From positions 190 through 64,189 of the forward strand of contig DATDGX010000147.1 of NCBI GenBank assembly GCA_036521875.1: a stretch of DNA of 64,000 bases. The letters are read 5' to 3'. Origin of the DNA: Candidatus Binataceae bacterium. GTDB taxonomy: Bacteria; Desulfobacterota; Binatia; Binatales; Binataceae. The position numbers were made by a program, and so were the translations under genes. The first letter of the stretch is position 1, and every line of letters begins with the position of its first letter. The notes under the pieces are model-generated. The model did not search any database. It was given only the letters and a program-made list of their open reading frames with translations, and had not been told where the DNA came from. Shown here one piece after another: positions 1 through 12,986 of this stretch.

Positions 1-669
1 GCGGCGATTCTCCGCGCGTCCTTCCGGAGTCGCGTTGCTCGCGACGAAGTTCGTCTTGCCAAAGCCCTGGGTTATCAACCGGCTCGACGGAATCCCTTGC
101 ATCCCCAGGTAATTGGCGACCGCGCCGGCGCGCCGCTCGGAAAGCCTGAGATTGTAGGCCTCGCTCCCGATCGCATCGCAGTAGCCGTTCACATGCACCG
201 TCACGTCGGGATTCGCCTTCAGAGTCGCGGCGGCTTCATCCAGCACTGCAGCATCGCCCGGCCGGATGTTGTACTTGTTGAAATCGAAATGTACGCCGCG
301 TAGCACCAGCTTCTCCTTGGCAAGAGGCGGCGGAGGCGGAGGTGGCGGAGGAGGAGGCGGCGGTGGCGGCGGGGGAGGAGGAGGCGGCTGAATTATCGGA
401 TCGCAAACATAATGTCCGACCAGCAGACCGACTATCGCGCCGACACCGGCGCCGATCACTGCGCCGGTGACTTTTCGCGAAGACGGCGGGTTGTGCTCAC
501 TGGTGTCCCCGATTGCGTAGCCGGCGCCGGCGCCCGCTGCCGTTCCCAAGAGGGCGCCCACCGCGGCGCATCCGTCCCATCTCCTCGGCTGCTGCAGGTT
601 GGCGCAACCGGCGCATAGCAGGACGAAACTCGACGCGACCGCGGTCAGAAACGAAGCTCGGGTTCTCAT
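1..669 (-). CDS. OmpA-family outer-membrane lipoprotein (partial; C-terminus runs off the window start)
   Basis: Minus-strand ATG at 667-669 preceded by GGAGGAG RBS. N-terminus has signal peptide with lipobox LLCAGC, Gly-zipper GAxGAxG segment and about 22-residue polyproline linker; C-terminal part is an OmpA_C-like peptidoglycan-binding domain (NGYCD..GS..YN..LS..RA..V, NRRVE). Not in ORF track because it is truncated at the window edge. Confidence 0.8.
   Translation of the reverse strand, partial: MRTRASFLTAVASSFVLLCAGCANLQQPRRWDGCAAVGALLGTAAGAGAGYAIGDTSEHNPPSSRKVTGAVIGAGVGAIVGLLVGHYVCDPIIQPPPPPPPPPPPPPPPPPPPPPLAKEKLVLRGVHFDFNKYNIRPGDAAVLDEAAATLKANPDVTVHVNGYCDAIGSEAYNLRLSERRAGAVANYLGMQGIPSSRLITQGFGKTNFVASNATPEGRAENRR
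310..395 (-). repeat. Simple GGN/CCN repeat encoding a polyproline linker inside the OmpA-family gene
   Basis: Plus strand reads (GGC/GGA/GGT)n for about 85 nt; on the minus strand this is CCN x about 22, an uninterrupted Pro run. Confidence 0.9.
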
Positions 670-895
670 CTCTCCTCCCAGAAAGATCGGCGATGTGCCG
701 CGACAACGATTTAGCGCGCGAGAGGATTGATATGGAACGGAGTCACAAGAATTTAACTTCGTTTCGAAATTGTTACGTCCTCGAGTATTCGCGGCGCGTC
801 TGGTGCAGCTTCTAGTGTTTCTGGCAAGCTGATACACCTGCCGTCGGCCCAATAAGGCGGGCCGCTACAATCAGGCCCAGGTAGCCTGACAAACG

Positions 896-1171
896 ATGCC
901 TGACAACAGCTCAGTTAATTTGCGCAGTGGGGAACAACCCTCACTTCCGCGCCGAATCTGGAACGGATGGAAACGCGTCGCGCGCAAGATCGGCGACTTT
1001 CAGGCGCGAGTGATTCTCAGCGTGTTTTACTTCGTGTTGCTTGCGCCGTTCGCCCTCGTCTCCCGCCTGAGCAGCGATTCGGCGGCGGCCCGGCAAGCCG
1101 CGCCTCACGGATGGACTCTCAAATCGGCTCGCACCGGAACTCCGATGGAAGAGGCGAGCAAACAATTCTGA
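896..1171 (+). CDS. SxtJ-like small membrane protein (carbamoyltransferase-associated)
   Basis: 91-aa ORF directly upstream (29 nt) of the carbamoyltransferase. Single hydrophobic helix ILSVFYFVLLAPFALVSRL following a basic W-rich stretch, pattern typical of SxtJ-family proteins that co-occur with NodU/CmcH carbamoyltransferases and DUF5989. Start codon uncertain. Confidence 0.45.
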   Translation: MPDNSSVNLRSGEQPSLPRRIWNGWKRVARKIGDFQARVILSVFYFVLLAPFALVSRLSSDSAAARQAAPHGWTLKSARTGTPMEEASKQF

Positions 1172-1200
1172 CCGCGCCGCGCCATCTCTCGAAATTCTAA

Positions 1201-2985
1201 ATGTTCGTACTCGGCATCTCCTGCTACTTCCACGACGCGGCCGCGGCGCTCTTGAGCGACGGGCAGTTGGTTGCCGCCGCGGAAGAGGAACGGTTCACGC
1301 GGAAGAAGCATGACTATGAATTTCCCGAGCATGCGATCGAGTTTTGCCTGCGCACCGCTAAGATTCGCGCCGAAGACCTCGACTACGTGGTCTTTTTCGA
1401 GAAACCCTTTCTCAAGTTCGAGCGCTTATTCCTGACCAGCCTGCAAACCTTCCCGAAATCGTGGCGGGTGTTTCAGGACGCGATGGTCACCTGGCTCGGC
1501 GACAAACTCTGGATACGGCATCTGATCCAGAAGAAGCTCGGCTTACGCCCCGAGCGGATCCTGTTCAGCGAACATCATCTGTCGCACGCGGCGAGCGCTT
1601 TTTTGTGCTCGCCGTTCGAAGAAGCGGCGCTGCTCACGGTCGACGGCGTCGGCGAATGGACGACCGCGAGCATCGGGCTCGGCAAAGGCAATCAGATCCG
1701 CCTGCTCAAGGAAATTCGCTTTCCGCACTCGATTGGACTGCTCTATAGCGCCTTCACCGCGTTCCTGGGCTTTGAGGTCAACGAGGGCGAGTACAAGGTG
1801 ATGGGAATGGCGCCGTTCGGAGAACCGCGCCACGTCGACAAGGTCCGCAAGCTGATTCATTTGAATGGCGACGGCAGCTTCGAGCTGGATCTCGACTACT
1901 TCAGCTTTCATTACTCGGCGACCCGCACCTTTAATCATAAGTTCGAAACACTATTCGGCGATCCGCGGCGCTCCGACGAGTATTTCTTCACATCCAAGAC
2001 TGACTATCCGTCTTACTATGGAGCAAAGCCCGGTAACTACTCAGAGTTGTGCCGGGCGAATGAGTATTACGCCGATATCGCCGCGAGCATCCAGGTAGTG
2101 GTGGAAGAAGCGGTCCTCGGGATGGCGCGCGAGGCTCATCGCGAGACCGGCCTGACGCGCTTGTGCATGGCCGGCGGGGTCGCTCTGAACAGCGTCGCCA
2201 ACACCAGGATCCTGAAAGAGACGCCCTTCAAGGAGCTGTACGTGCAGCCCGCGGCCGGCGACGGCGGTGGCGCCTTGGGCGCGGCGCTTTACGGATGGCA
2301 CGTCGTGCTCGGCAAGCCGCGCGGCTTCGTGATGGACCACGCCTACTGGGGCGAACAACACGAAATGGCGGAGGTCAAGTCATTCGTGGATGACAACCGC
2401 ATCGCGCACCAGTGCTTCGGCAGCGAAGACGCGCTGATGGACCGCGTGGTGGCGATGCTTGCGGACGGCAAGGTCACCGGCTGGTCGCAGGGGCGCTTCG
2501 AATGGGGCCCGCGGGCGCTCGGAAATCGCAGCATCCTGGCCGATCCGCGCCGCGCCGACATGAAGGACATCGTGAACCTGAAAATAAAATTCCGCGAGCC
2601 GTTTCGCCCGTTCGCACCCTCGGTGATCGCGGAACGCGCGGAGGAATATTTCGACTTGCCCAATCCGATGCGGCAATTTCCCGCACGCTTCATGCTCTAT
2701 GTCACCCCCGTCCGCGACCAGCATCGCCATCAGCTTCCCGCGATCACGCATGTCGATGGCACCGCGCGGCTGCAGACCGTATGGCGCGACTCGAATCCGC
2801 GCTACTATCGCCTGATTGAACAGTTCGGAGCCGCGACCGGAGTGCCGGTTCTGTTGAATACTTCTTTCAACCTGCGCGGCGAGCCGATAGTCAATTCGCC
2901 CACCGAGGCGTATAGCACATTCATGAACAGCGGAATGGACGCGCTGGTAATCGAGAACGTATTAATCGAGAAGTCTAAAAGTTAG
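1201..2985 (+). CDS. Carbamoyltransferase (NodU/CmcH/NovN family, Kae1/HypF-like fold)
   Basis: 594 aa. N-terminus MFVLGISCYFHDAAAAL..HHLSHAASAF and C-terminal carbamoyltransferase domain (ITHVDGTARLQTV, LLNTSFN) are hallmarks of the family. Confidence 0.9.
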   Translation: MFVLGISCYFHDAAAALLSDGQLVAAAEEERFTRKKHDYEFPEHAIEFCLRTAKIRAEDLDYVVFFEKPFLKFERLFLTSLQTFPKSWRVFQDAMVTWLGDKLWIRHLIQKKLGLRPERILFSEHHLSHAASAFLCSPFEEAALLTVDGVGEWTTASIGLGKGNQIRLLKEIRFPHSIGLLYSAFTAFLGFEVNEGEYKVMGMAPFGEPRHVDKVRKLIHLNGDGSFELDLDYFSFHYSATRTFNHKFETLFGDPRRSDEYFFTSKTDYPSYYGAKPGNYSELCRANEYYADIAASIQVVVEEAVLGMAREAHRETGLTRLCMAGGVALNSVANTRILKETPFKELYVQPAAGDGGGALGAALYGWHVVLGKPRGFVMDHAYWGEQHEMAEVKSFVDDNRIAHQCFGSEDALMDRVVAMLADGKVTGWSQGRFEWGPRALGNRSILADPRRADMKDIVNLKIKFREPFRPFAPSVIAERAEEYFDLPNPMRQFPARFMLYVTPVRDQHRHQLPAITHVDGTARLQTVWRDSNPRYYRLIEQFGAATGVPVLLNTSFNLRGEPIVNSPTEAYSTFMNSGMDALVIENVLIEKSKS

Positions 2986-3004
2986 CTGAATATAGAGACT
3001 GACT

Positions 3005-3184
3005 ATGAAGTTCTGGACCGGAATCAAATCGCGGTTCTCGATAATTTCGGAGTTGCTGCAGTTCTTCGCGAACAACAAGGTGTGGTGGCTGACCCCAATC
3101 ATCGCGCTGCTTCTGGTGTTCGGCCTGCTGGTGATTTTCGCGCAGAGTTCGGCTATCGCGCCGTTCATCTACACGCTGTTCTGA
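3005..3184 (+). CDS. DUF5989-like small membrane protein (59 aa, SxtK-like)
   Basis: ATG 3005, stop TGA 3182-3184. Protein MKFWTGIKSRFSIISELLQFFANNKVWWLTPIIALLLVFGLLVIFAQSSAIAPFIYTLF has one TM helix. This small-protein family is characteristically encoded immediately after carbamoyltransferases. Below the 60-aa threshold of the ORF track. Confidence 0.6.
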   Translation: MKFWTGIKSRFSIISELLQFFANNKVWWLTPIIALLLVFGLLVIFAQSSAIAPFIYTLF

Positions 3185-3204
3185 GCGGGGAAAACGCAAC
3201 GACG

Positions 3205-4599
3205 ATGTTGAGTCCCTACATTGAAGCGTGGAACCTGCGCGACCTGGTGATTCGCAAGGAGATCCGTCCGCGCGAAGTCGCCGAGTTTTTTCTCGCCCGA
3301 ATCGAGAAGCTCAACGCAAAGCTCGGCGCATTCATGACCGTCACCCCCGAGCGCGCGAACGAAGACGCGGAGCGCCTCGAGCTGATGACCGCGGAGGAAG
3401 CCGCCGCAATGCCGCTGTTCGGGGTCGCGTACTCGCTCAAGGATCTCACCTGGACCAAAGACATTCGCACCACCTTCGGATCGAAGAACTACGAGAACTG
3501 GTTCGCACCCGCCGATGCCGAGATCGCGGTGCGGCTTCGCAACGCTGGCGGGATCCTGCTCGGCAAAACCACGACTTCGGAATTCGGATGCCGCCCCACG
3601 GTCGAGGGCGGACTATGCCCGCCTGCCATCAATCCGTGGAATGTCGAACACACCGCGGGCGGCTCGAGCGGCGGAGCCGCAGCCGCGGTCGCATCCGGGA
3701 TGCATCCGATCGCGCAGGGCAGCGACGGCGGCGGCTCGGTCCGGATTCCCGCCGCGTGCTGCGGGTTGGTCGGGATCAAACCGTCGCGCGGCCGCATCAC
3801 GTATGCGCCGCAGCAGGCGGAGTCGTGGGGCGGCTTCTCGACCATCGGACCACTCGCGCGCACGGTGCGCGACGCCGCGCTGATGCTCGATACGATGGCG
3901 GGCTCTGTGATCGGCGATCCGTACACGGCGTCGCCGCCCGCCAAGCCGTTCGTGAAAGCGCTCCGCGCGCGGCCAAAGAACTTGCGGCTAGGCGCGATTT
4001 CAGAGTCGTCGCTTGGCAGGTGCGACGCCGAGACGCTGGCCGCATTCGAGTCGGCGTGCGAGATGATGCGCGCGATGGGGCATACGATCGAGCCGCTCAA
4101 GCTCGATCCCGGCGCGCGGCTGATGGAATTCGCGCGGACGATCGTATGCGCCGGCGTAAGCGCCCTGCAGATCGAGAATCCCGCTCTCATGGACGAGGTC
4201 GCGCGCGGAACGTACGAGTATGGCCGCCGGATCAGCGCGGCCGAGTACATCCGCACGGTAACCCAGATGCACAACGCCTCGCGCGAGATCGTGCGCGAGC
4301 TGGCGCCCTACGATGCACTGCTGACGCCGACGCTCACTCGCCCCGCGGTGCGGCTCGGCACGTTGCCGTCGTCGCGTGAGAGCGCAAGCGCCGACATCTA
4401 TGGATGGAACTGTTTCGCATTCCCGTTCAACGTCACCGGCCAGCCCGCGGTAGCACTGCCCAATGGATTCGCCAGCTCAGGACTGCCTTTGAGCGTGCAA
4501 ATTGTCGGCCGGCCGTATGATGAGGCGGGGATAATCGCCCTGGCCGCGCAATTCGAAACCGCGCGTCCGTGGCGCAGCAAGCATCCACGCGTCGATTAG
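3205..4599 (+). CDS. Amidase (amidase-signature family)
   Basis: GGSSGGAAAAVASGM motif plus catalytic Ser-cisSer-Lys context (KDL..K, GGSSGG). Start assigned to ATG 3205 (MLSPYIEAWN...) 20 nt after the DUF5989 ORF; the track ORF 3082.. is an upstream in-frame extension. Confidence 0.85.
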   Translation: MLSPYIEAWNLRDLVIRKEIRPREVAEFFLARIEKLNAKLGAFMTVTPERANEDAERLELMTAEEAAAMPLFGVAYSLKDLTWTKDIRTTFGSKNYENWFAPADAEIAVRLRNAGGILLGKTTTSEFGCRPTVEGGLCPPAINPWNVEHTAGGSSGGAAAAVASGMHPIAQGSDGGGSVRIPAACCGLVGIKPSRGRITYAPQQAESWGGFSTIGPLARTVRDAALMLDTMAGSVIGDPYTASPPAKPFVKALRARPKNLRLGAISESSLGRCDAETLAAFESACEMMRAMGHTIEPLKLDPGARLMEFARTIVCAGVSALQIENPALMDEVARGTYEYGRRISAAEYIRTVTQMHNASREIVRELAPYDALLTPTLTRPAVRLGTLPSSRESASADIYGWNCFAFPFNVTGQPAVALPNGFASSGLPLSVQIVGRPYDEAGIIALAAQFETARPWRSKHPRVD

Positions 4600-4689
4600 T
4601 TTTAGATCAGCGATCTGTTAAGCCGATTTTCCGCTGCTGCTCAGGGCGCGAGCTTGCGGAACCACTGGGAGCGATGCTTTAAGCGAATG

Positions 4690-5562
4690 GAGATGAACAT
4701 CTCACTATTCCGTCATGCGTCGCGCGTTCTGGGGCGCGCCAGCGTTCCGAGTGCGGTATCGGCCTTATGCGCGGCGGGCCTCGTCTTCGTCTACCTGGTA
4801 TCGTTCATGGCCACGCCGGCTCGTTGCGACGATGCGGATATGTGGTGCGGCGCCGCGTGGTCCTGCGAGCAGCCGGTGCCCCCGCAAGCCGCCCAGGCCC
4901 CTTCCGTTCCACAAATATGGACCGCTATAGCGATTTCCAAGTCGACGCTGGGAAACGCCACGTCGTGGCAGGCGTCCTCAGAGTCCACCGCGGAAAGTGT
5001 CGCCCTCGACAGGTGCAACCGGAAACACCACGATTGCAGCATTGCGATATCTCGCCCCAACCTCTGCATCGCGCTCGCGGTCAGCACGAACTGGGCCTGG
5101 GCGGTTGGCCAGGCCGACACCTACATAGGCGCGGACCACGTGGCTTTCGCCAATTGCGTCGCCAACGGCGGAACTAAATGCGTCGTGACCGCCGATCCGT
5201 GTTCGGACGATGGACCGCTCGCGACGGGAAACTCATCCGCGTCCGCACAGACCCTGGGGCAGTCGACGAGTGCGCAAGCGGTCGATCAGCAACTGATCGG
5301 AGTGTGGGAAGTCGCGATACCTTCGCCACAGGGCGAGTTTGACATGCGTTCTCAGATCAACGCGAACGGCACTTTCTCAACGACATTTCCCGGATCGCCA
5401 ACGTCTCCGATTACCGGTTCATTTTCCGCGAGCAACGGAGTCTGGGTGTACACGACCGCGACGGGATCCGACGGCGGTTCCTACACTTTCACTAACCCGA
5501 ATCAGGTCACCATGGCGGGCAGGCTCGGGCCGCCCGCCACCTGGCATCGCGCAAGCAATTGA
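4690..5562 (+). CDS. Secreted protein with duplicated DUF4189-like Cys-containing domains
   Basis: Signal-peptide-like N-terminus (MEMNISLF...ALCAAGLVFVYLVSF). Two repeats of W.AIA.S...G...W...S...AE..AL..C......C pattern characteristic of DUF4189. Start uncertain (4654 or 4690). Confidence 0.5.
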   Translation, partial: EMNISLFRHASRVLGRASVPSAVSALCAAGLVFVYLVSFMATPARCDDADMWCGAAWSCEQPVPPQAAQAPSVPQIWTAIAISKSTLGNATSWQASSESTAESVALDRCNRKHHDCSIAISRPNLCIALAVSTNWAWAVGQADTYIGADHVAFANCVANGGTKCVVTADPCSDDGPLATGNSSASAQTLGQSTSAQAVDQQLIGVWEVAIPSPQGEFDMRSQINANGTFSTTFPGSPTSPITGSFSASNGVWVYTTATGSDGGSYTFTNPNQVTMAGRLGPPATWHRASN

Positions 5563-5614
5563 TCGACTTTCGTCAGCATTAAAGGATTTTCACCTCATCG
5601 CTGACAGCTAGTTC

Positions 5615-6670
5615 TCAGGGCCGCGCTTCCAGCACCAGGTTGAACGGGGTAGCGGTCGCGCGGCGCACGCGCGAGAATCCTCCGCTCAATATCACTTCTC
5701 GTAGTTTGGTTTCACCGGCCTGAGTGCCGAGCGCGAGACCCACTTCCTGCGACAATGATGCGGGCACGCAAATCTGCGTCGATGCCGAATAGAATATGCG
5801 GCCGATCGGATTGAGATTGTCCGCCATTTGATCGCTGGAGAAGGGCTCGACAATCATCCATGTGCCGCCGGGCTTCAAGGTCGACTTGACGTGCGCAGCC
5901 ACGCCGACCGGGTCGCCCATGTCATGCAGGCAGTCAAAGAATGCAACTAAATCGTAGGTGCCGGTAAATTCCTTCGCCGACGCGCGCTGGAAGGTGACCC
6001 GGTCAGTGACGCCGCTCTCACGCGCCACCTCGCGCGCGCGCAGCAGCGATGGTTCGTGATAGTCGAAGCCCGCGAATTGCGATTTTGCAAATGCCTTGGC
6101 CAGCAAAATGGTCGATGCGCCATGGCCGCAGCCGACATCCGCGACCTGCGCGCCGCGTTCGAGCTTTTCCTTGACGCCCTCCAACGCCGGAATCCATTCC
6201 GACACCAGATGCATCGCGTAGCTCGGGCGGAAAAATCTCTCCGTGCCGCTGAACAGGCAGGGATCGTGCTCATGCCACCCGACCCCTCCGCCGGTGCGGA
6301 ACGCCGCCTCGACCTTGGGAAGATCGCGCGCGGCAGCGGCGGCGATTTCGAACATCGCGGGGAAAAATGCGGGTCCGTTTTCGTCGGCGAGGATCAGCGC
6401 CTGCTCGGGTGAAATCGAAAATCGCTCCGTCGCAGGGTCGAAATTGATATAGCCGCCCGCCGCCTGCGCGGCCGCCCACTCGCGCACGTAGCGCACCGCA
6501 GTGCCGGTGCGCGATGCGAGTTCTGCGGAGGTCAATGGTCCCGCGGCTGCCAGCGCCTTGTACAATCCTAACTTGTCGCCCAGGAGGACCAGCCCGATGC
6601 CCAACGCGGCACCCACCTCGCCGAGCATCTTGCCGAGAAGTTGCTGAAGCTTTCCTTCGTCGATTGCCAT
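5615..6670 (-). CDS. Class I SAM-dependent methyltransferase (O-methyltransferase-like, with N-terminal winged-helix dimerisation region)
   Basis: VADVGCGHGASTILLAKAF (motif I GxGxG), acidic FD motif II, DCLHDMGDP motif; 351 aa. Confidence 0.8.
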   Translation of the reverse strand: MAIDEGKLQQLLGKMLGEVGAALGIGLVLLGDKLGLYKALAAAGPLTSAELASRTGTAVRYVREWAAAQAAGGYINFDPATERFSISPEQALILADENGPAFFPAMFEIAAAAARDLPKVEAAFRTGGGVGWHEHDPCLFSGTERFFRPSYAMHLVSEWIPALEGVKEKLERGAQVADVGCGHGASTILLAKAFAKSQFAGFDYHEPSLLRAREVARESGVTDRVTFQRASAKEFTGTYDLVAFFDCLHDMGDPVGVAAHVKSTLKPGGTWMIVEPFSSDQMADNLNPIGRIFYSASTQICVPASLSQEVGLALGTQAGETKLREVILSGGFSRVRRATATPFNLVLEARP

Positions 6671-6690
6671 CGCATGCCTCCTTGATTAAA

Positions 6691-7047
6691 TCAGCGATCC
6701 AGCCATTTGGGATTGTTGATTGCAAGCGCGTCGGCCAGCGACTGGCGGATGTGCGCGCGCAAAGCAGGATCGTCGAGCGCGATAGCGCCGCCGCGGATAC
6801 GCTCCGCGAGCTCCATGCTCAGCTTCTCGACGTCGGCGTCGTGGCCAAGCATGGCGGCGAGCCGCGCGCGTTCCGCGGCCGCCTGCGCGTCGCGAAGCTC
6901 CAGCTCACGGCGGACCGTGTTGAGAACGTTGACCGTGACCCGAGTCTGGAAGCGATGATAGCTCTCTAGCGTCGGCATCAATTCGCCTTCCAGATACTTG
7001 ACCGCGGCCTTCAGAAGAAGGGCGGCATCGGGCATGCTTCGTGGCAT
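6691..7047 (-). CDS. DUF6285-like small protein (companion of phosphotransferase/acyl-CoA dehydrogenase pairs)
   Basis: 118-aa ORF immediately downstream of the phosphotransferase gene; position and size match the family. Confidence 0.55.
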   Translation of the reverse strand: MPRSMPDAALLLKAAVKYLEGELMPTLESYHRFQTRVTVNVLNTVRRELELRDAQAAAERARLAAMLGHDADVEKLSMELAERIRGGAIALDDPALRAHIRQSLADALAINNPKWLDR

Positions 7048-7083
7048 AGTCAGTCCATATTTCCGATCTAGTCAGTTAAATAG

Positions 7084-8115
7084 TCAGTCCCGCCCTTCGA
7101 TTAGGTTCAGGAAGTCCCAAAGAGGCTCCTCGATTCGCCGGCCGATAGCGGATCGTTCGATTCCGACTTCTTCGATTCCGCGAGTACCCAGTTGCAGGCA
7201 TCCGATTGCCCACTTCACGCTGCCGAATGCCTCCCAAAATCGCACGTGCGCGGGATCAACGCGATGACCGCTGGCCTTTTCGTATGCCGCGAACAGATCT
7301 TCACGCGTACCGAAACCGCCAACCGGACGCGGCCCGCCGAAGCGCCAGGTCTTCACGCACAGCCAGCCAAGGTCCTGCATCGGATCGCCGCTCAGCGCAA
7401 TCTCCCAATCTAGCACCAGGCGCACACCCTCCTCGCCGACGATCAGATTGCCGAGACGAAAATCACCATGAAGTACGGTATGGCGCGGGTTAGCCGGCGC
7501 CTGCTCCGCGGCCCAGCGCAAGCCCAGTTCGACCGCCGGAGATCGGAAGCGGTAGTAATCGACAATTCTCTGTTGCGCTGCGACCAGCGCGGCCGCATCC
7601 ATCCGCTTGAGGAACGGCGCCTCGGCGAGATCGATACTATGGATTGCGGCCAGGATGGTGCCGCACTGACGCGCCATTACGGCGCGGGCGTGGGCGAAAC
7701 GCTCCTCGCGCAGAATGCGCGGCGCCACCGTCTCGCCCGCCACGCGCTCGGTCACGTAGCCGGAGCCGAGGCCGTCGGCAGGCTCGAGGACGGCGCGGAT
7801 TCGCGGCGCCGGCACGCCATGTTTCACCGCGGCGATCATCAGGCGCGCGTCTTCCGCCGCCGTCACGCGGATGAAGATGTCGGCGAGCGGATTCGGCGCA
7901 TCGTCGGCGGCGGCGCTGGAGATCTGCAGAATGAATTGCTGGCGCGCGCCCCCGACGTCGGCGTCGAACGACCAGGTGGTGCGGTTGGCGCCGCCGGTCA
8001 GCCGCTGCAGATCGTGCACGGTGCCCGGCGCCCCGATGTGCCGCGCGACCGCAGTCTGCAATTGCGCGGCGATGTCGTCGTTGGCCATTACCCAGTTCGG
8101 CGCTCGGACGCGCAT
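7084..8115 (-). CDS. Phosphotransferase-family protein (APH/choline-kinase-like kinase fold)
   Basis: Brenner motif HGDFRLGNLIV and DWE catalytic motif (LVLDWEIALSGDP). Start assigned to ATG 8113-8115 (MRVRAPNW...), which overlaps the upstream stop as TGATG. Confidence 0.8.
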   Translation of the reverse strand: MRVRAPNWVMANDDIAAQLQTAVARHIGAPGTVHDLQRLTGGANRTTWSFDADVGGARQQFILQISSAAADDAPNPLADIFIRVTAAEDARLMIAAVKHGVPAPRIRAVLEPADGLGSGYVTERVAGETVAPRILREERFAHARAVMARQCGTILAAIHSIDLAEAPFLKRMDAAALVAAQQRIVDYYRFRSPAVELGLRWAAEQAPANPRHTVLHGDFRLGNLIVGEEGVRLVLDWEIALSGDPMQDLGWLCVKTWRFGGPRPVGGFGTREDLFAAYEKASGHRVDPAHVRFWEAFGSVKWAIGCLQLGTRGIEEVGIERSAIGRRIEEPLWDFLNLIEGRD

Positions 8116-9389
8116 CACTCGGCAGCCTGTTTGCGGTCGCGGAAAAACCCGAATAGGTATTGCGCAACTCTGCGCATCTGGATTTCTTCCGAGCCCTCGG
8201 TGATGCGGTAGCGGCGATGATGCCGATAGATGTGCTCGAACGGCTTGTGGCGTGAATAGCCAATCGCGCCGTGCACCTGGATGGCGCGATCGGCCGCGTC
8301 GCAGACCAGCCGATTCGCGCGATAATTGCACATCGCAACCTTGTCCGAGAGTTTCAGCGCGACGTCGGGCTTGGACATCTGATCCATCTCCCACGCGGTC
8401 TTGTGGATCAGCGTCCGCAGCATCGCGGCTTCGGTGTGCAGCTCGACCAGCGGCCATTGAATCGCCTGGTTGGCGGAAAGTGGTTTGCCGAATGGCTTGC
8501 GCTGCTTGGCGTACTTCACGCTCTCGTCGATGCAGTACTGCGCCGCACCGAGCGACGACGCGGCCTGGCGGATGCGATTCTCATGCACGAAATGCTGCGC
8601 CACCGCGAGCCCATTCTCAGGATCGCCGAGGATCGCGTCGGCAGGCACGAACACCTCCGTCAGAGAGATGCGCGGATGGTCGGTCGGCATGTTGAAGGTC
8701 CACAGGTACTCCTCGATCTTGAAGCCGGCGCTGTCGGTCGGGACGATGAAACAGCTGATGCCGGTGGCGCCGCCGTCCCTGCCACTTGAGCGCGCGAAGA
8801 TGAAGTCGTGGGTAGCGACGTTGACGCCGGTGTTCCACATCTTCGCGCCGTTGATGCGCCATCCGTCGCCCTCGCGCACCGCGCGCGTCTCCATCCAGGT
8901 CGCGTCGGAGCCGTGGTTGGGCTCTGTCAAGCCGAACGCGATGCGCATCGAGCCGTCGAGAAGTTTCGGAATGAGTTCTTTCTTCTGTTGCGGCGTGCCG
9001 AAATCGCGGAACATCAGGACGGTCGGAAGGTTGCCCACGATCGAGCTTTCGTTCTGCAGATCGTTATGCAGCCCGAGGCCCTTCGCCGCCAGGTACTCGC
9101 GGATGATCGCCATCGCGAGGTTGGTGCCGTCCTTGCCGCCGTACTCCTTGGGCAGCGCGTAGCGGTAGTGTCCGGCCTTGTCGGCGCGGCGGCGCATTTC
9201 TCGCAACAGTTCCTCCCACTCATGGCGCGGCAGACCGCCGTTCTCGTAATCGGTGCGCGCCCATTCACGTCGATGATCGAAGAAGCGGATGTTGTCGTTC
9301 TCGCGCTCCAGCGGTTTGATTTCTTTTTCGATGAAGGCATCCAACTCGGCGAGATAGGCCTTGATGTCGGCCGGAATGTTGAAGTCCAC
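8115..9389 (-). CDS. Acyl-CoA dehydrogenase family protein
   Basis: 424 aa. ACAD N-terminal, middle (GLTEPNHGSDA) and C-terminal domains recognisable; catalytic region YRITEGSEEIQ. Confidence 0.9.
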   Translation of the reverse strand: MDFNIPADIKAYLAELDAFIEKEIKPLERENDNIRFFDHRREWARTDYENGGLPRHEWEELLREMRRRADKAGHYRYALPKEYGGKDGTNLAMAIIREYLAAKGLGLHNDLQNESSIVGNLPTVLMFRDFGTPQQKKELIPKLLDGSMRIAFGLTEPNHGSDATWMETRAVREGDGWRINGAKMWNTGVNVATHDFIFARSSGRDGGATGISCFIVPTDSAGFKIEEYLWTFNMPTDHPRISLTEVFVPADAILGDPENGLAVAQHFVHENRIRQAASSLGAAQYCIDESVKYAKQRKPFGKPLSANQAIQWPLVELHTEAAMLRTLIHKTAWEMDQMSKPDVALKLSDKVAMCNYRANRLVCDAADRAIQVHGAIGYSRHKPFEHIYRHHRRYRITEGSEEIQMRRVAQYLFGFFRDRKQAAE

Positions 9390-9469
9390 GGCGGTTCTCC
9401 TCTGGCGGTCCTTATCTGCGAGGCGTACCAGAGTGCGAATACGAACGGAAGCAAAAAGAGGCGAGCAAG

Positions 9470-12555: not shown

Positions 12556-12986
12556 TTCCCGCGACTTCCTTGTAGGAGCTGTGTGTAGATTAGATTCGAT
12601 CCAGCCATCGACAACGGTCTTGCTGGATCAGCTTGGGAGCCAACAACGGAAATCACCGCGAACCAACGGCGATTCTTTTCTCTACGGATCCGACGATCTC
12701 TCGAATGTTGCGCCAGTAACGGGCATCTTCTCGCCAAGGTAATTTCCCGTGACACCGATGTTTCTAATCCCCCTTGCTCCGCCACCGAGTCGCAGCGTTC
12801 TGGCTTCTCTTCGACCGACCCTCCAGAGAGCGCCCTTTTTCGGGCTTGCGTGTGAATTCACGGTTGGCGTGGCACTCGCAGAGAGTAAGATGTTTGCGCT
12901 CTCCGCGAAAATGAGCCACTTTTCTCTTCAGCAACACGGAATCAGAGGCATTACCCGTTGTCGATCTGGGGTTGAGATAGAGGCTC

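Follow-up and report, generated by a model that had tools for sequence, protein, structure and literature searches.

A widespread carbamoyltransferase cassette with SxtJ-like and DUF5989 micro-proteins beside a probably resident amidase gene in a Binataceae bacterium

Four closely packed genes on a contig of Candidatus Binataceae bacterium (GenBank assembly GCA_036521875.1, contig DATDGX010000147.1, positions 190 to 64,189 of the forward strand; this whole stretch of 64,000 nt is referred to below as the window) raise the question of whether an O-carbamoyltransferase (CT), two very small predicted membrane proteins, and an amidase form a single functional module, and what such a module might modify. 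The first three of these genes, which encode an SxtJ-like protein, the CT, and a DUF5989 micro-protein (positions 896-3184), are an intact copy of a widespread three-gene set. The fourth, judging from the surroundings of its orthologs, appears to be an older resident gene and not a conserved member of the module. All four genes are intact and co-oriented, with gaps of 29 nt (SxtJ-like/CT), 19 nt (CT/DUF5989), and 20 nt (DUF5989/amidase):

896-1171, + strand: gene for the SxtJ-like protein, 91 amino acids (aa); PF19588 at 19.7 bits, below the cut-off
1201-2985, + strand: O-carbamoyltransferase gene of the NodU/CmcH/TobZ type, 594 aa; Pfam matches of 278 and 240 bits
3005-3184, + strand: gene for the DUF5989 micro-protein, 59 aa; PF19451 at 73.6 bits
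3205-4599, + strand: gene for an amidase-signature hydrolase, 464 aa; PF01425 at 333.6 bits

These assignments agree with the first-pass annotation, which had been made by a model from the sequence alone: its CT, DUF5989, and amidase calls are strong, and its SxtJ call is true at the family level. In a simple hydropathy scan, the SxtJ-like and DUF5989 proteins each show about one predicted membrane helix, and the CT and the amidase show none.

The recurrence of the three-gene set was assessed in 80 CT loci, taken from one genome per species and representing at least 11 phylum-level groups (Binatia, Acidobacteriota with many loci, Methylomirabilota/Rokubacteria, Dadabacteria, Thermodesulfobacteriales, Planctomycetia, Latescibacterota, Baltobacteraceae, Chloroflexota, Elusimicrobia, Myxococcales, and unclassified proteobacteria). 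All open reading frames (ORFs) of at least 30 aa were searched with phmmer and then with profiles built from the matches. An SxtJ-like gene was found near the CT gene in 70 of the 80 loci and a DUF5989 gene in 66; both were present in 57 loci and at least one of them in 79. Since 79 of 80 genomes of different species carry one or both small genes near the CT gene, the linkage is far beyond chance. Several loci that lack one small gene end right beside the CT gene, and relaxed profile searches in the loci without an SxtJ-like or DUF5989 gene found no further copies. With J and K denoting the SxtJ-like and DUF5989 genes, the prevailing gene orders are J-CT-K, which the window has, and K-J-CT. 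Across these groups, mostly uncultured soil and sediment bacteria, the CTs are 63-75% identical, with homologs at 72-75% identity in metagenome-assembled genomes (MAGs) labelled Zixibacteria, Eremiobacteraceae, Binatia, Deltaproteobacteria, and Alphaproteobacteria. The earlier description of the SxtJ-like/CT/DUF5989 triad as a recurring neighborhood without a known substrate is thus borne out, and the survey of homologous carbamoyltransferases that had been proposed as a check finds the small genes retained near the CT across phyla.

The CT matches Carbam_trans_N (PF02543; 278 bits, model positions 2-346 of 346) and Carbam_trans_C (PF16861; 239.9 bits, positions 2-170 of 170) and accordingly consists of a Kae1-like N-terminal domain and a YrdC-like C-terminal domain, with no membrane segment. 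Its relatives with solved structures are GdmN, NovN, TobZ, and another carbamoyltransferase (7xb6), with E values from 5e-93 to 8e-86 (5e-93 to 1e-86 for GdmN, NovN, and TobZ); TobZ aligns in a single piece over residues 8-591, and GdmN and NovN align in two stretches. The motifs FHDAAA, HHLSHA, VDGVGE, AGDGG, GPRALGNRS, FRPFAP, THVDGT, and NTSFN are all kept, nearly all of their residues being invariant among 18 homologs, and HHLSH (residues 125-129), VDGVGE (D148), AGDGG (D354), and GPRALGNRS (436-444) align with their counterparts in GdmN. From the structure of TobZ, we take these motifs to serve metal and nucleotide binding. Equivalence to NodU was ruled out, because the CT scores 152 bits (aligned residues 290-562) against the NCBIfam NodU equivalog model NF041651, whose cut-off is 1000 bits. 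Natural J-CT fusions, which might have indicated how the SxtJ-like protein docks on the enzyme, were sought among over-long CT homologs; P0003 proved to be an assembly duplication and P0072 to have an over-extended N terminus, so that neither is a fusion.

Both small ORFs had been expected to match the Pfam models that bear their names, and this expectation held for only one of them. The DUF5989 protein scores 73.6 bits against PF19451, well above the gathering cut-off of 27, over model positions 2-49 of 49; the SxtJ-like protein scores 19.7 bits against PF19588 (E = 0.0014, model positions 49-94 of 99), below the gathering cut-off of 24.4. The latter is therefore not a clean member of the Pfam SxtJ family as judged by this profile. 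Nevertheless, 20 of 48 aligned SxtJ-like relatives from the CT loci match PF19588 at E <= 0.01 (the best at 1.7e-5), the 48 homologs share a conserved core of about 75 residues (W..WK..A..IGNFQARVLLT.FY.V..LPFGL..R.FSDPL.IK..P..W), and a scan of 1.84 billion representative proteins recovered 712 relatives at E <= 0.001, most of them 73-175 aa long with the homologous part at the C terminus. Because of this conserved core, these model matches, and this abundance, the ORF can be regarded as genuine and as representing an abundant, short, divergent branch related to the C-terminal half of SxtJ. Its predicted membrane helix spans approximately residues 35-51, and its gene, which lies 29 nt upstream of the CT gene in the window, has a relative within 200 nt of the CT gene in 58 of the 80 loci.

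The DUF5989 protein is strongly constrained. Members of the family alignment have a constant length of 59 aa and invariant E16, L17, F20, W28, and P31 residues, and the C-terminal motif ...AQSSAIAPFIYTLF is largely kept, its P, F, I, Y, and final F being invariant (APFIYTLF in the window). The window protein, with its one predicted membrane helix, is 100% identical to that of the closest surveyed locus, L001, despite 86% identity at the DNA level. SxtK of the saxitoxin clusters has 54 aa, and its gene adjoins sxtI/sxtJ (PMC2679770; supplement of PMC10157211); by size (59 versus 54 aa) and gene position, the DUF5989 protein is probably its equivalent. A literature search found no mention of DUF5989, and no NCBIfam model was found for either the SxtJ-like or the DUF5989 protein.

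The amidase appears to differ from the other three in its history. Its mechanically predicted ORF begins at a GTG codon at position 3082 and overlaps the DUF5989 gene; the start was corrected to the ATG at position 3205, because the sequence MLSPYIEAW lines up with the start of the orthologs. The protein has no signal peptide or membrane segment. Its closest solved structure is NylA (219 bits), and it keeps the LKDL, GGSSGG, and GGSVRIPA motifs, with the Ser-cisSer-Lys signature intact; it reaches none of the NCBIfam subfamily cut-offs, the best match being 321 versus 506 bits. Orthologs at 65-73% identity are numerous and, where taxon names are given, come from Candidatus Binatus, Binataceae, and Candidatus Acidoferrales. 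Within 6 kb of the CT gene, this amidase gene was found in only 1 of the 80 surveyed loci, L001, and not in the other 79; adjacency to the triad is limited to the window, L001, and one additional locus, L086 (the CT is 93% identical in both relatives). Between L001 and window positions 1-4600, nucleotide identity is 86.5%, and the similarity ends at the amidase stop codon.

Five loci with amidase orthologs (L081-L085) show what this region looks like elsewhere. Each carries genes for DUF444, PrkA, a metallo-beta-lactamase, and a small hypothetical protein (- strand), followed after a gap of 177-538 nt by the amidase gene, with identities of 80-96% for PrkA, 73-76% for the metallo-beta-lactamase, and 70-73% for the amidase. 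Further downstream, three of the five have a LysR regulator gene, and four have a gene for an Rv2258c-like methyltransferase (intact, split, or remnant). None of these five amidase loci has a CT, SxtJ-like, or DUF5989 gene. L001 and L086 share the same PrkA/metallo-beta-lactamase/hypothetical protein backbone and amidase, with an OmpA-family gene and J-CT-K lying in between, and the window keeps the downstream Rv2258c-like methyltransferase gene, 78% identical to the copy in L082. Because the five relatives retain the backbone and the amidase gene without the triad, the amidase would be the resident and the triad the newcomer. Directly before the amidase ATG, the relatives share a conserved GGAGGTGAACGTG, and the corresponding sequence in the window and L001 is unrelated to it, which places the junction at the amidase start codon and implies that the amidase lost its own upstream region, including the ribosome-binding site. 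The simplest reading would be that the OmpA-family gene and the cassette were inserted into the divergent promoter region of the resident amidase. The suggestion that the amidase belongs to the module is thus not supported, given a distribution confined to the window and two close relatives and the five triad-free orthologous loci. In L082, the amidase site (positions 3121-7392) holds three or four tandem paralogs, of which two seem to be split; this suggests an expanding catabolic amidase family in that lineage.

Co-transcription of the four genes, predicted earlier from their gaps, is judged likely because of the tight packing and because no terminator-like site was found in any of their junctions. 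The 226-nt region at positions 670-895, the presumed promoter region of the triad and, by read-through, of the amidase gene, contains no match to the sigma-70 consensus or to any Rfam family, and promoter, terminator, and Rfam scans of the region gave nothing beyond chance. Read-through from the cassette probably now drives expression of the amidase, as an accident of position and not through a conserved functional link. Base composition was considered as a sign of horizontal acquisition and provided no usable signal: the overall GC content is lower in the cassette (0.53-0.60) than in the amidase gene (0.66), but the GC content at third codon positions (GC3) is ordinary, 0.67-0.83 in the cassette versus 0.72-0.82 in the neighboring genes.

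The usual fourth gene elsewhere, overlooked when the amidase was proposed as the fourth partner, encodes an SGNH/GDSL hydrolase of the SxtL type. When the flanking ORFs were clustered and representatives annotated, a GDSL/SGNH hydrolase of about 390 aa was the most frequent additional gene near the CT gene; SGNH profile matches at E <= 1e-5 were present in 53 of the 80 loci, 45 of them on the CT strand. This partner is the same kind of enzyme as SxtL, the GDSL enzyme whose gene follows sxtK in saxitoxin clusters and is also found in the suomilide cluster (PMC2679770, PMC10157211). Lipase_GDSL_2 is matched by 36 of 42 SGNH partners and ALGX by 14; conserved blocks are GDS, G, ND, and DxxH, in which the G, S, and H residues are invariant and the others are present in the consensus. 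Nearly all of these proteins have a single N-terminal hydrophobic anchor in the hydropathy scan (e.g., L075:10589-11758 and L039:7789-9000). The ALGX matches and the N-terminal anchor hint at an extracytoplasmic transfer or trimming step. A profile built from the 42 partners found no SGNH homolog at E <= 0.01 in the 64-kb window or in L001.

Beyond the cassette, the flanking genes are heterogeneous, which makes the cassette look self-contained, with at most a weak lean to cell envelope glycan contexts. Among the 110 nearest same-strand neighbors, the top Pfam families are radical SAM (6), GT2 (5), beta-helix (5), WecG (4), epimerase (4), and NHL (4), with 2 each for GT1, MBOAT, sulfatase, and ABC transporter families. 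Envelope-type neighbors at the other loci form a minority and include GT2, GT1/GT4, WecG, epimerase, PMT_2, MBOAT, and SLT lytic transglycosylase. In the closest J-CT-K loci after L001, an SLT lytic transglycosylase gene lies directly upstream on the same strand (L003:4619-5332 and L006:4660-5490), a very weak pointer to peptidoglycan. In a Binatia MAG (L002:9562-12084), J-CT-K is followed by pyrimidine genes: one has a phosphoribosyltransferase domain, and a second ORF has domains of the aspartate/ornithine carbamoyltransferase family. Carbamoyl phosphate is a substrate of that family as it is of the CT, which may be a coincidence, seen in this locus only.

In TobZ, carbamoyl phosphate and ATP react in the YrdC-like domain to give carbamoyl-adenylate, and a hydroxyl then receives the carbamoyl group in the Kae1-like domain, which has a metal site. 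By analogy with TobZ, GdmN, and NovN, the YrdC-like C-terminal domain of the window CT would convert carbamoyl phosphate and ATP to carbamoyl-adenylate, and the metal-containing Kae1-like N-terminal domain would pass the carbamoyl group to an acceptor hydroxyl. The SxtJ-like and DUF5989 proteins would keep the enzyme on the cytoplasmic side of the inner membrane and thereby let it act on a membrane-bound or membrane-proximal acceptor; membrane tethering or orienting of the CT appears to be the most likely role of both small proteins, given their single predicted helices, the positive charge of their N-terminal segments, and the strictness with which their genes accompany that of a soluble enzyme. 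Because the CT is conserved across phyla and its neighborhoods are variable, a common membrane-associated acceptor would be expected rather than a lineage-specific metabolite. Our best guess, offered with low confidence, is that this acceptor could be a lipid-linked or envelope glycan or a lipid. The reading as a whole, a self-contained cassette of the CT and two membrane proteins with TobZ-type chemistry, membrane tethering, and the amidase outside the cassette, seems to us probable, though by no means secure.

Several points weigh against it. Binding of the SxtJ-like and DUF5989 proteins to the CT is a hypothesis, in the saxitoxin system as well as here, and the SxtJ-like protein of the window is under the Pfam cut-off. 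No glycan or lipid biosynthesis genes lie near the cassette, whose neighbors are the genes for a DUF4189 protein, a methyltransferase, and a DUF6285/APH/acyl-CoA dehydrogenase set, and the guess at the acceptor is weak because envelope-related neighbors are a minority of a very mixed set at the other loci. The ordinary GC3 of the cassette does not point to a recent foreign origin, so the choice between an insertion in this lineage and a loss in the five relatives rests on parsimony, the block being absent from five relatives and present in one shallow lineage. Finally, the amidase, likely co-expressed with the cassette, may have been recruited secondarily into the pathway, as the 20-nt gap and the shared strand make conceivable.

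Taken further, such recruitment would make the amidase a working fourth component in place of the SGNH/GDSL hydrolase, whether by hydrolyzing carbamates in the cytoplasm (as a urethanase or decarbamoylase) or by processing the product. The amidase-signature family includes carbamate- and ureido-cleaving enzymes such as urethanases, allophanate hydrolase, and AtzE; the window protein has intact catalytic motifs, and no terminator separates its gene from the DUF5989 gene 20 nt upstream on that strand; and its gene takes the slot after the DUF5989 gene that is occupied by the SGNH hydrolase in several loci, while neither the window nor L001 has an SGNH homolog. However, the NCBIfam models for the carbamate- and ureido-cleaving subfamilies matched it weakly, far below the cut-off, its adjacency to the triad is confined to one shallow lineage, and the orthologs on the same backbone in the five relatives indicate that the amidase predates the juxtaposition. 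In addition, the tandem paralogs of L082 suggest a family of general catabolic function. With their membrane anchor, the SGNH partners probably face outward, so that an amidase without signal or anchor is not their topological equivalent, and 27 of the 80 loci do without an SGNH gene within 6 kb, which makes a replacement unnecessary. A working fourth component is therefore an improbable role for this enzyme. Rather unlikely too, taken with all its parts, is a broader scheme in which the cassette, usually with a membrane-anchored AlgJ/AlgX-like SGNH protein, would be a self-contained envelope O-carbamoylation system of many phyla, and in which the amidase would have been captured and perhaps co-opted. 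By analogy with multi-component O-acetylation systems, the cytoplasmic enzyme would activate the carbamoyl group, the micro-proteins would couple it to the membrane, and the outward-facing SGNH protein would transfer or trim the group on a common cell surface glycan or lipid; the lineage of the window, with no SGNH gene nearby, would have a cytoplasmic amidase in the transcript, perhaps a carbamate hydrolase.

Two other explanations concern the triad itself. It could be the tailoring step of a secondary metabolite pathway of the saxitoxin or suomilide kind, with the remaining cluster elsewhere or unrecognized: the gene set has been studied solely in cyanobacterial toxin and peptide clusters (PMC2679770, PMC10157211), and the solved homologs TobZ, GdmN, and NovN stem from antibiotic pathways. 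We consider this unlikely, as no nonribosomal peptide synthetase, polyketide synthase, or other biosynthetic genes were recognized among the annotated genes of window positions 1-25,315 (a scan of long ORFs, several of which had no Pfam match), and the high identity of the CTs across at least 11 phylum-level groups, amid mixed neighbors, suggests a common acceptor. It is less likely still that the small ORFs are incidental, being spurious or functionally unrelated membrane proteins, and that the CT acts alone on a soluble substrate. The characterized, structurally solved O-carbamoyltransferases are each named as an enzyme on its own, and the SxtJ-like protein falls below the Pfam cut-off, but both small genes have been kept beside the CT gene across phyla in two gene orders, and the DUF5989 protein, identical in the window and L001 while their DNA has diverged, has a fixed length and a near-invariant C terminus. 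Such strong purifying selection and conserved linkage contradict the idea of spurious genes.

The features that flank the four genes are as follows:

1-669, - strand: gene for an OmpA-family lipoprotein, partial, running off the window start; Pfam OmpA at 88.7 bits and Gly-zipper_YMGG at 33.8 bits
670-895, no strand: divergent intergenic region of 226 nt between the OmpA-family and SxtJ-like genes, read from the sequence
4654-5562: gene for a DUF4189 protein; Pfam match

The Pfam matches bear out the earlier naming of the OmpA-family lipoprotein and the DUF4189 protein as the flanking genes. The lipoprotein gene is divergent from the triad, and its occurrence here is confined to the lineage with the inserted triad (present in L001 and L086, absent from the corresponding position in L081-L085); between its glycine-zipper segment and its OmpA domain, it encodes a poly-proline linker of about 20 residues, visible as a run of GGN triplets on the + strand at window positions 325-390. 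On the other side, the Rv2258c-like methyltransferase gene, also identified with Pfam, lies downstream of the amidase, and window positions 6691-9389 (- strand) carry DUF6285, APH-type phosphotransferase, and acyl-CoA dehydrogenase genes in series. The APH ORF (7084-8457) overlaps the acyl-CoA dehydrogenase ORF (8115-9389) by about 340 nt, so the true start of the APH gene is probably further downstream. In L001, the last 72 bp of the amidase gene (window positions 4527-4598) are present twice, at positions 9322-9393 and 12652-12723, about 3.3 kb apart; these repeats bracket Imm5-like and acyl-CoA dehydrogenase genes, at the position occupied in the window by the DUF4189 gene. The segment has the appearance of an insertion, with the amidase 3' end as a direct repeat on either side.

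The cassette is widespread and strongly conserved, while its acceptor and the roles of its micro-proteins lack assignment even in the saxitoxin pathway where these genes were first named. The window adds one further copy of the cassette and no direct handle on the substrate. The genes that neighbor the cassette across loci are too variable to name the acceptor, and the locus makes the acceptor question no more testable than do many others. A cultured member of the Acidobacteriota with the K-J-CT-SGNH arrangement would be a better experimental entry, and annotation and study of the module should leave the amidase out.

The nearest parallel among described systems is the SxtI-J-K(-L) set of the saxitoxin and suomilide clusters. 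The saxitoxin carbamoyltransferase gene lies beside two very small ORFs, the three having sizes of 1839, 405, and 165 bp (PMC2679770), and sxtJ, sxtK, and sxtL travel together in the suomilide cluster of Nostoc (PMC2679770, PMC2885083, PMC10157211, PMC12300590). SxtJ and SxtK are described as having an unknown role or are hypothesized to act with SxtI (PMC2679770, PMC2885083, bioRxiv 10.64898/2026.06.11.731795); a literature search on heterologous expression of SxtI gave a single paper, on the genetics of Alexandrium. The window cassette resembles this set in its carbamoyltransferase with two very small ORFs, in the putative catalytic motif GPRALGxRS, and in the SGNH/GDSL hydrolase that its relatives elsewhere carry, as sxtL does. 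It differs in the gene order, J-CT-K instead of I-J-K-L; in its SxtJ-like protein, which at 91 aa is shorter than SxtJ (134 aa), aligns with just the C-terminal half of the Pfam model, and falls below the cut-off; in the absence of a nearby SGNH gene and of genes for toxin or peptide biosynthesis among those annotated nearby (1-25 kb); and in its host, an uncultured soil-type bacterium and not a cyanobacterium.

TobZ, GdmN, and NovN share with the window CT the two-domain Kae1-like and YrdC-like architecture and the conserved motifs of the His/His/Asp/Asp type and of the carbamoyl phosphate/ATP site, but the resemblance is distant, with full-length scores of about 292-316 bits, whereas the cassette CTs are 63-75% identical to one another; the acceptors of the three are known antibiotics. 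To our knowledge, none of the three has SxtJ-like or DUF5989 partners. NodU and NolO belong to the same Pfam families as the CT, and no nod genes are among those annotated in the window. The amidase shares the fold family and the Ser-cisSer-Lys motifs of NylA, the 6-aminohexanoate cyclic-dimer hydrolase, without reaching a subfamily cut-off. The SGNH partners found elsewhere, absent from the window, resemble the SGNH-like O-acetyltransferases of the AlgJ/AlgX type in having an N-terminal anchor followed by an SGNH domain and, in one-third of the 42 cases, in matching ALGX; that they might handle carbamoyl rather than acetyl groups is pure speculation. With these likenesses and differences, the window locus is a further copy of the SxtI/J/K-type neighborhood, a kind already known but uncharacterized.

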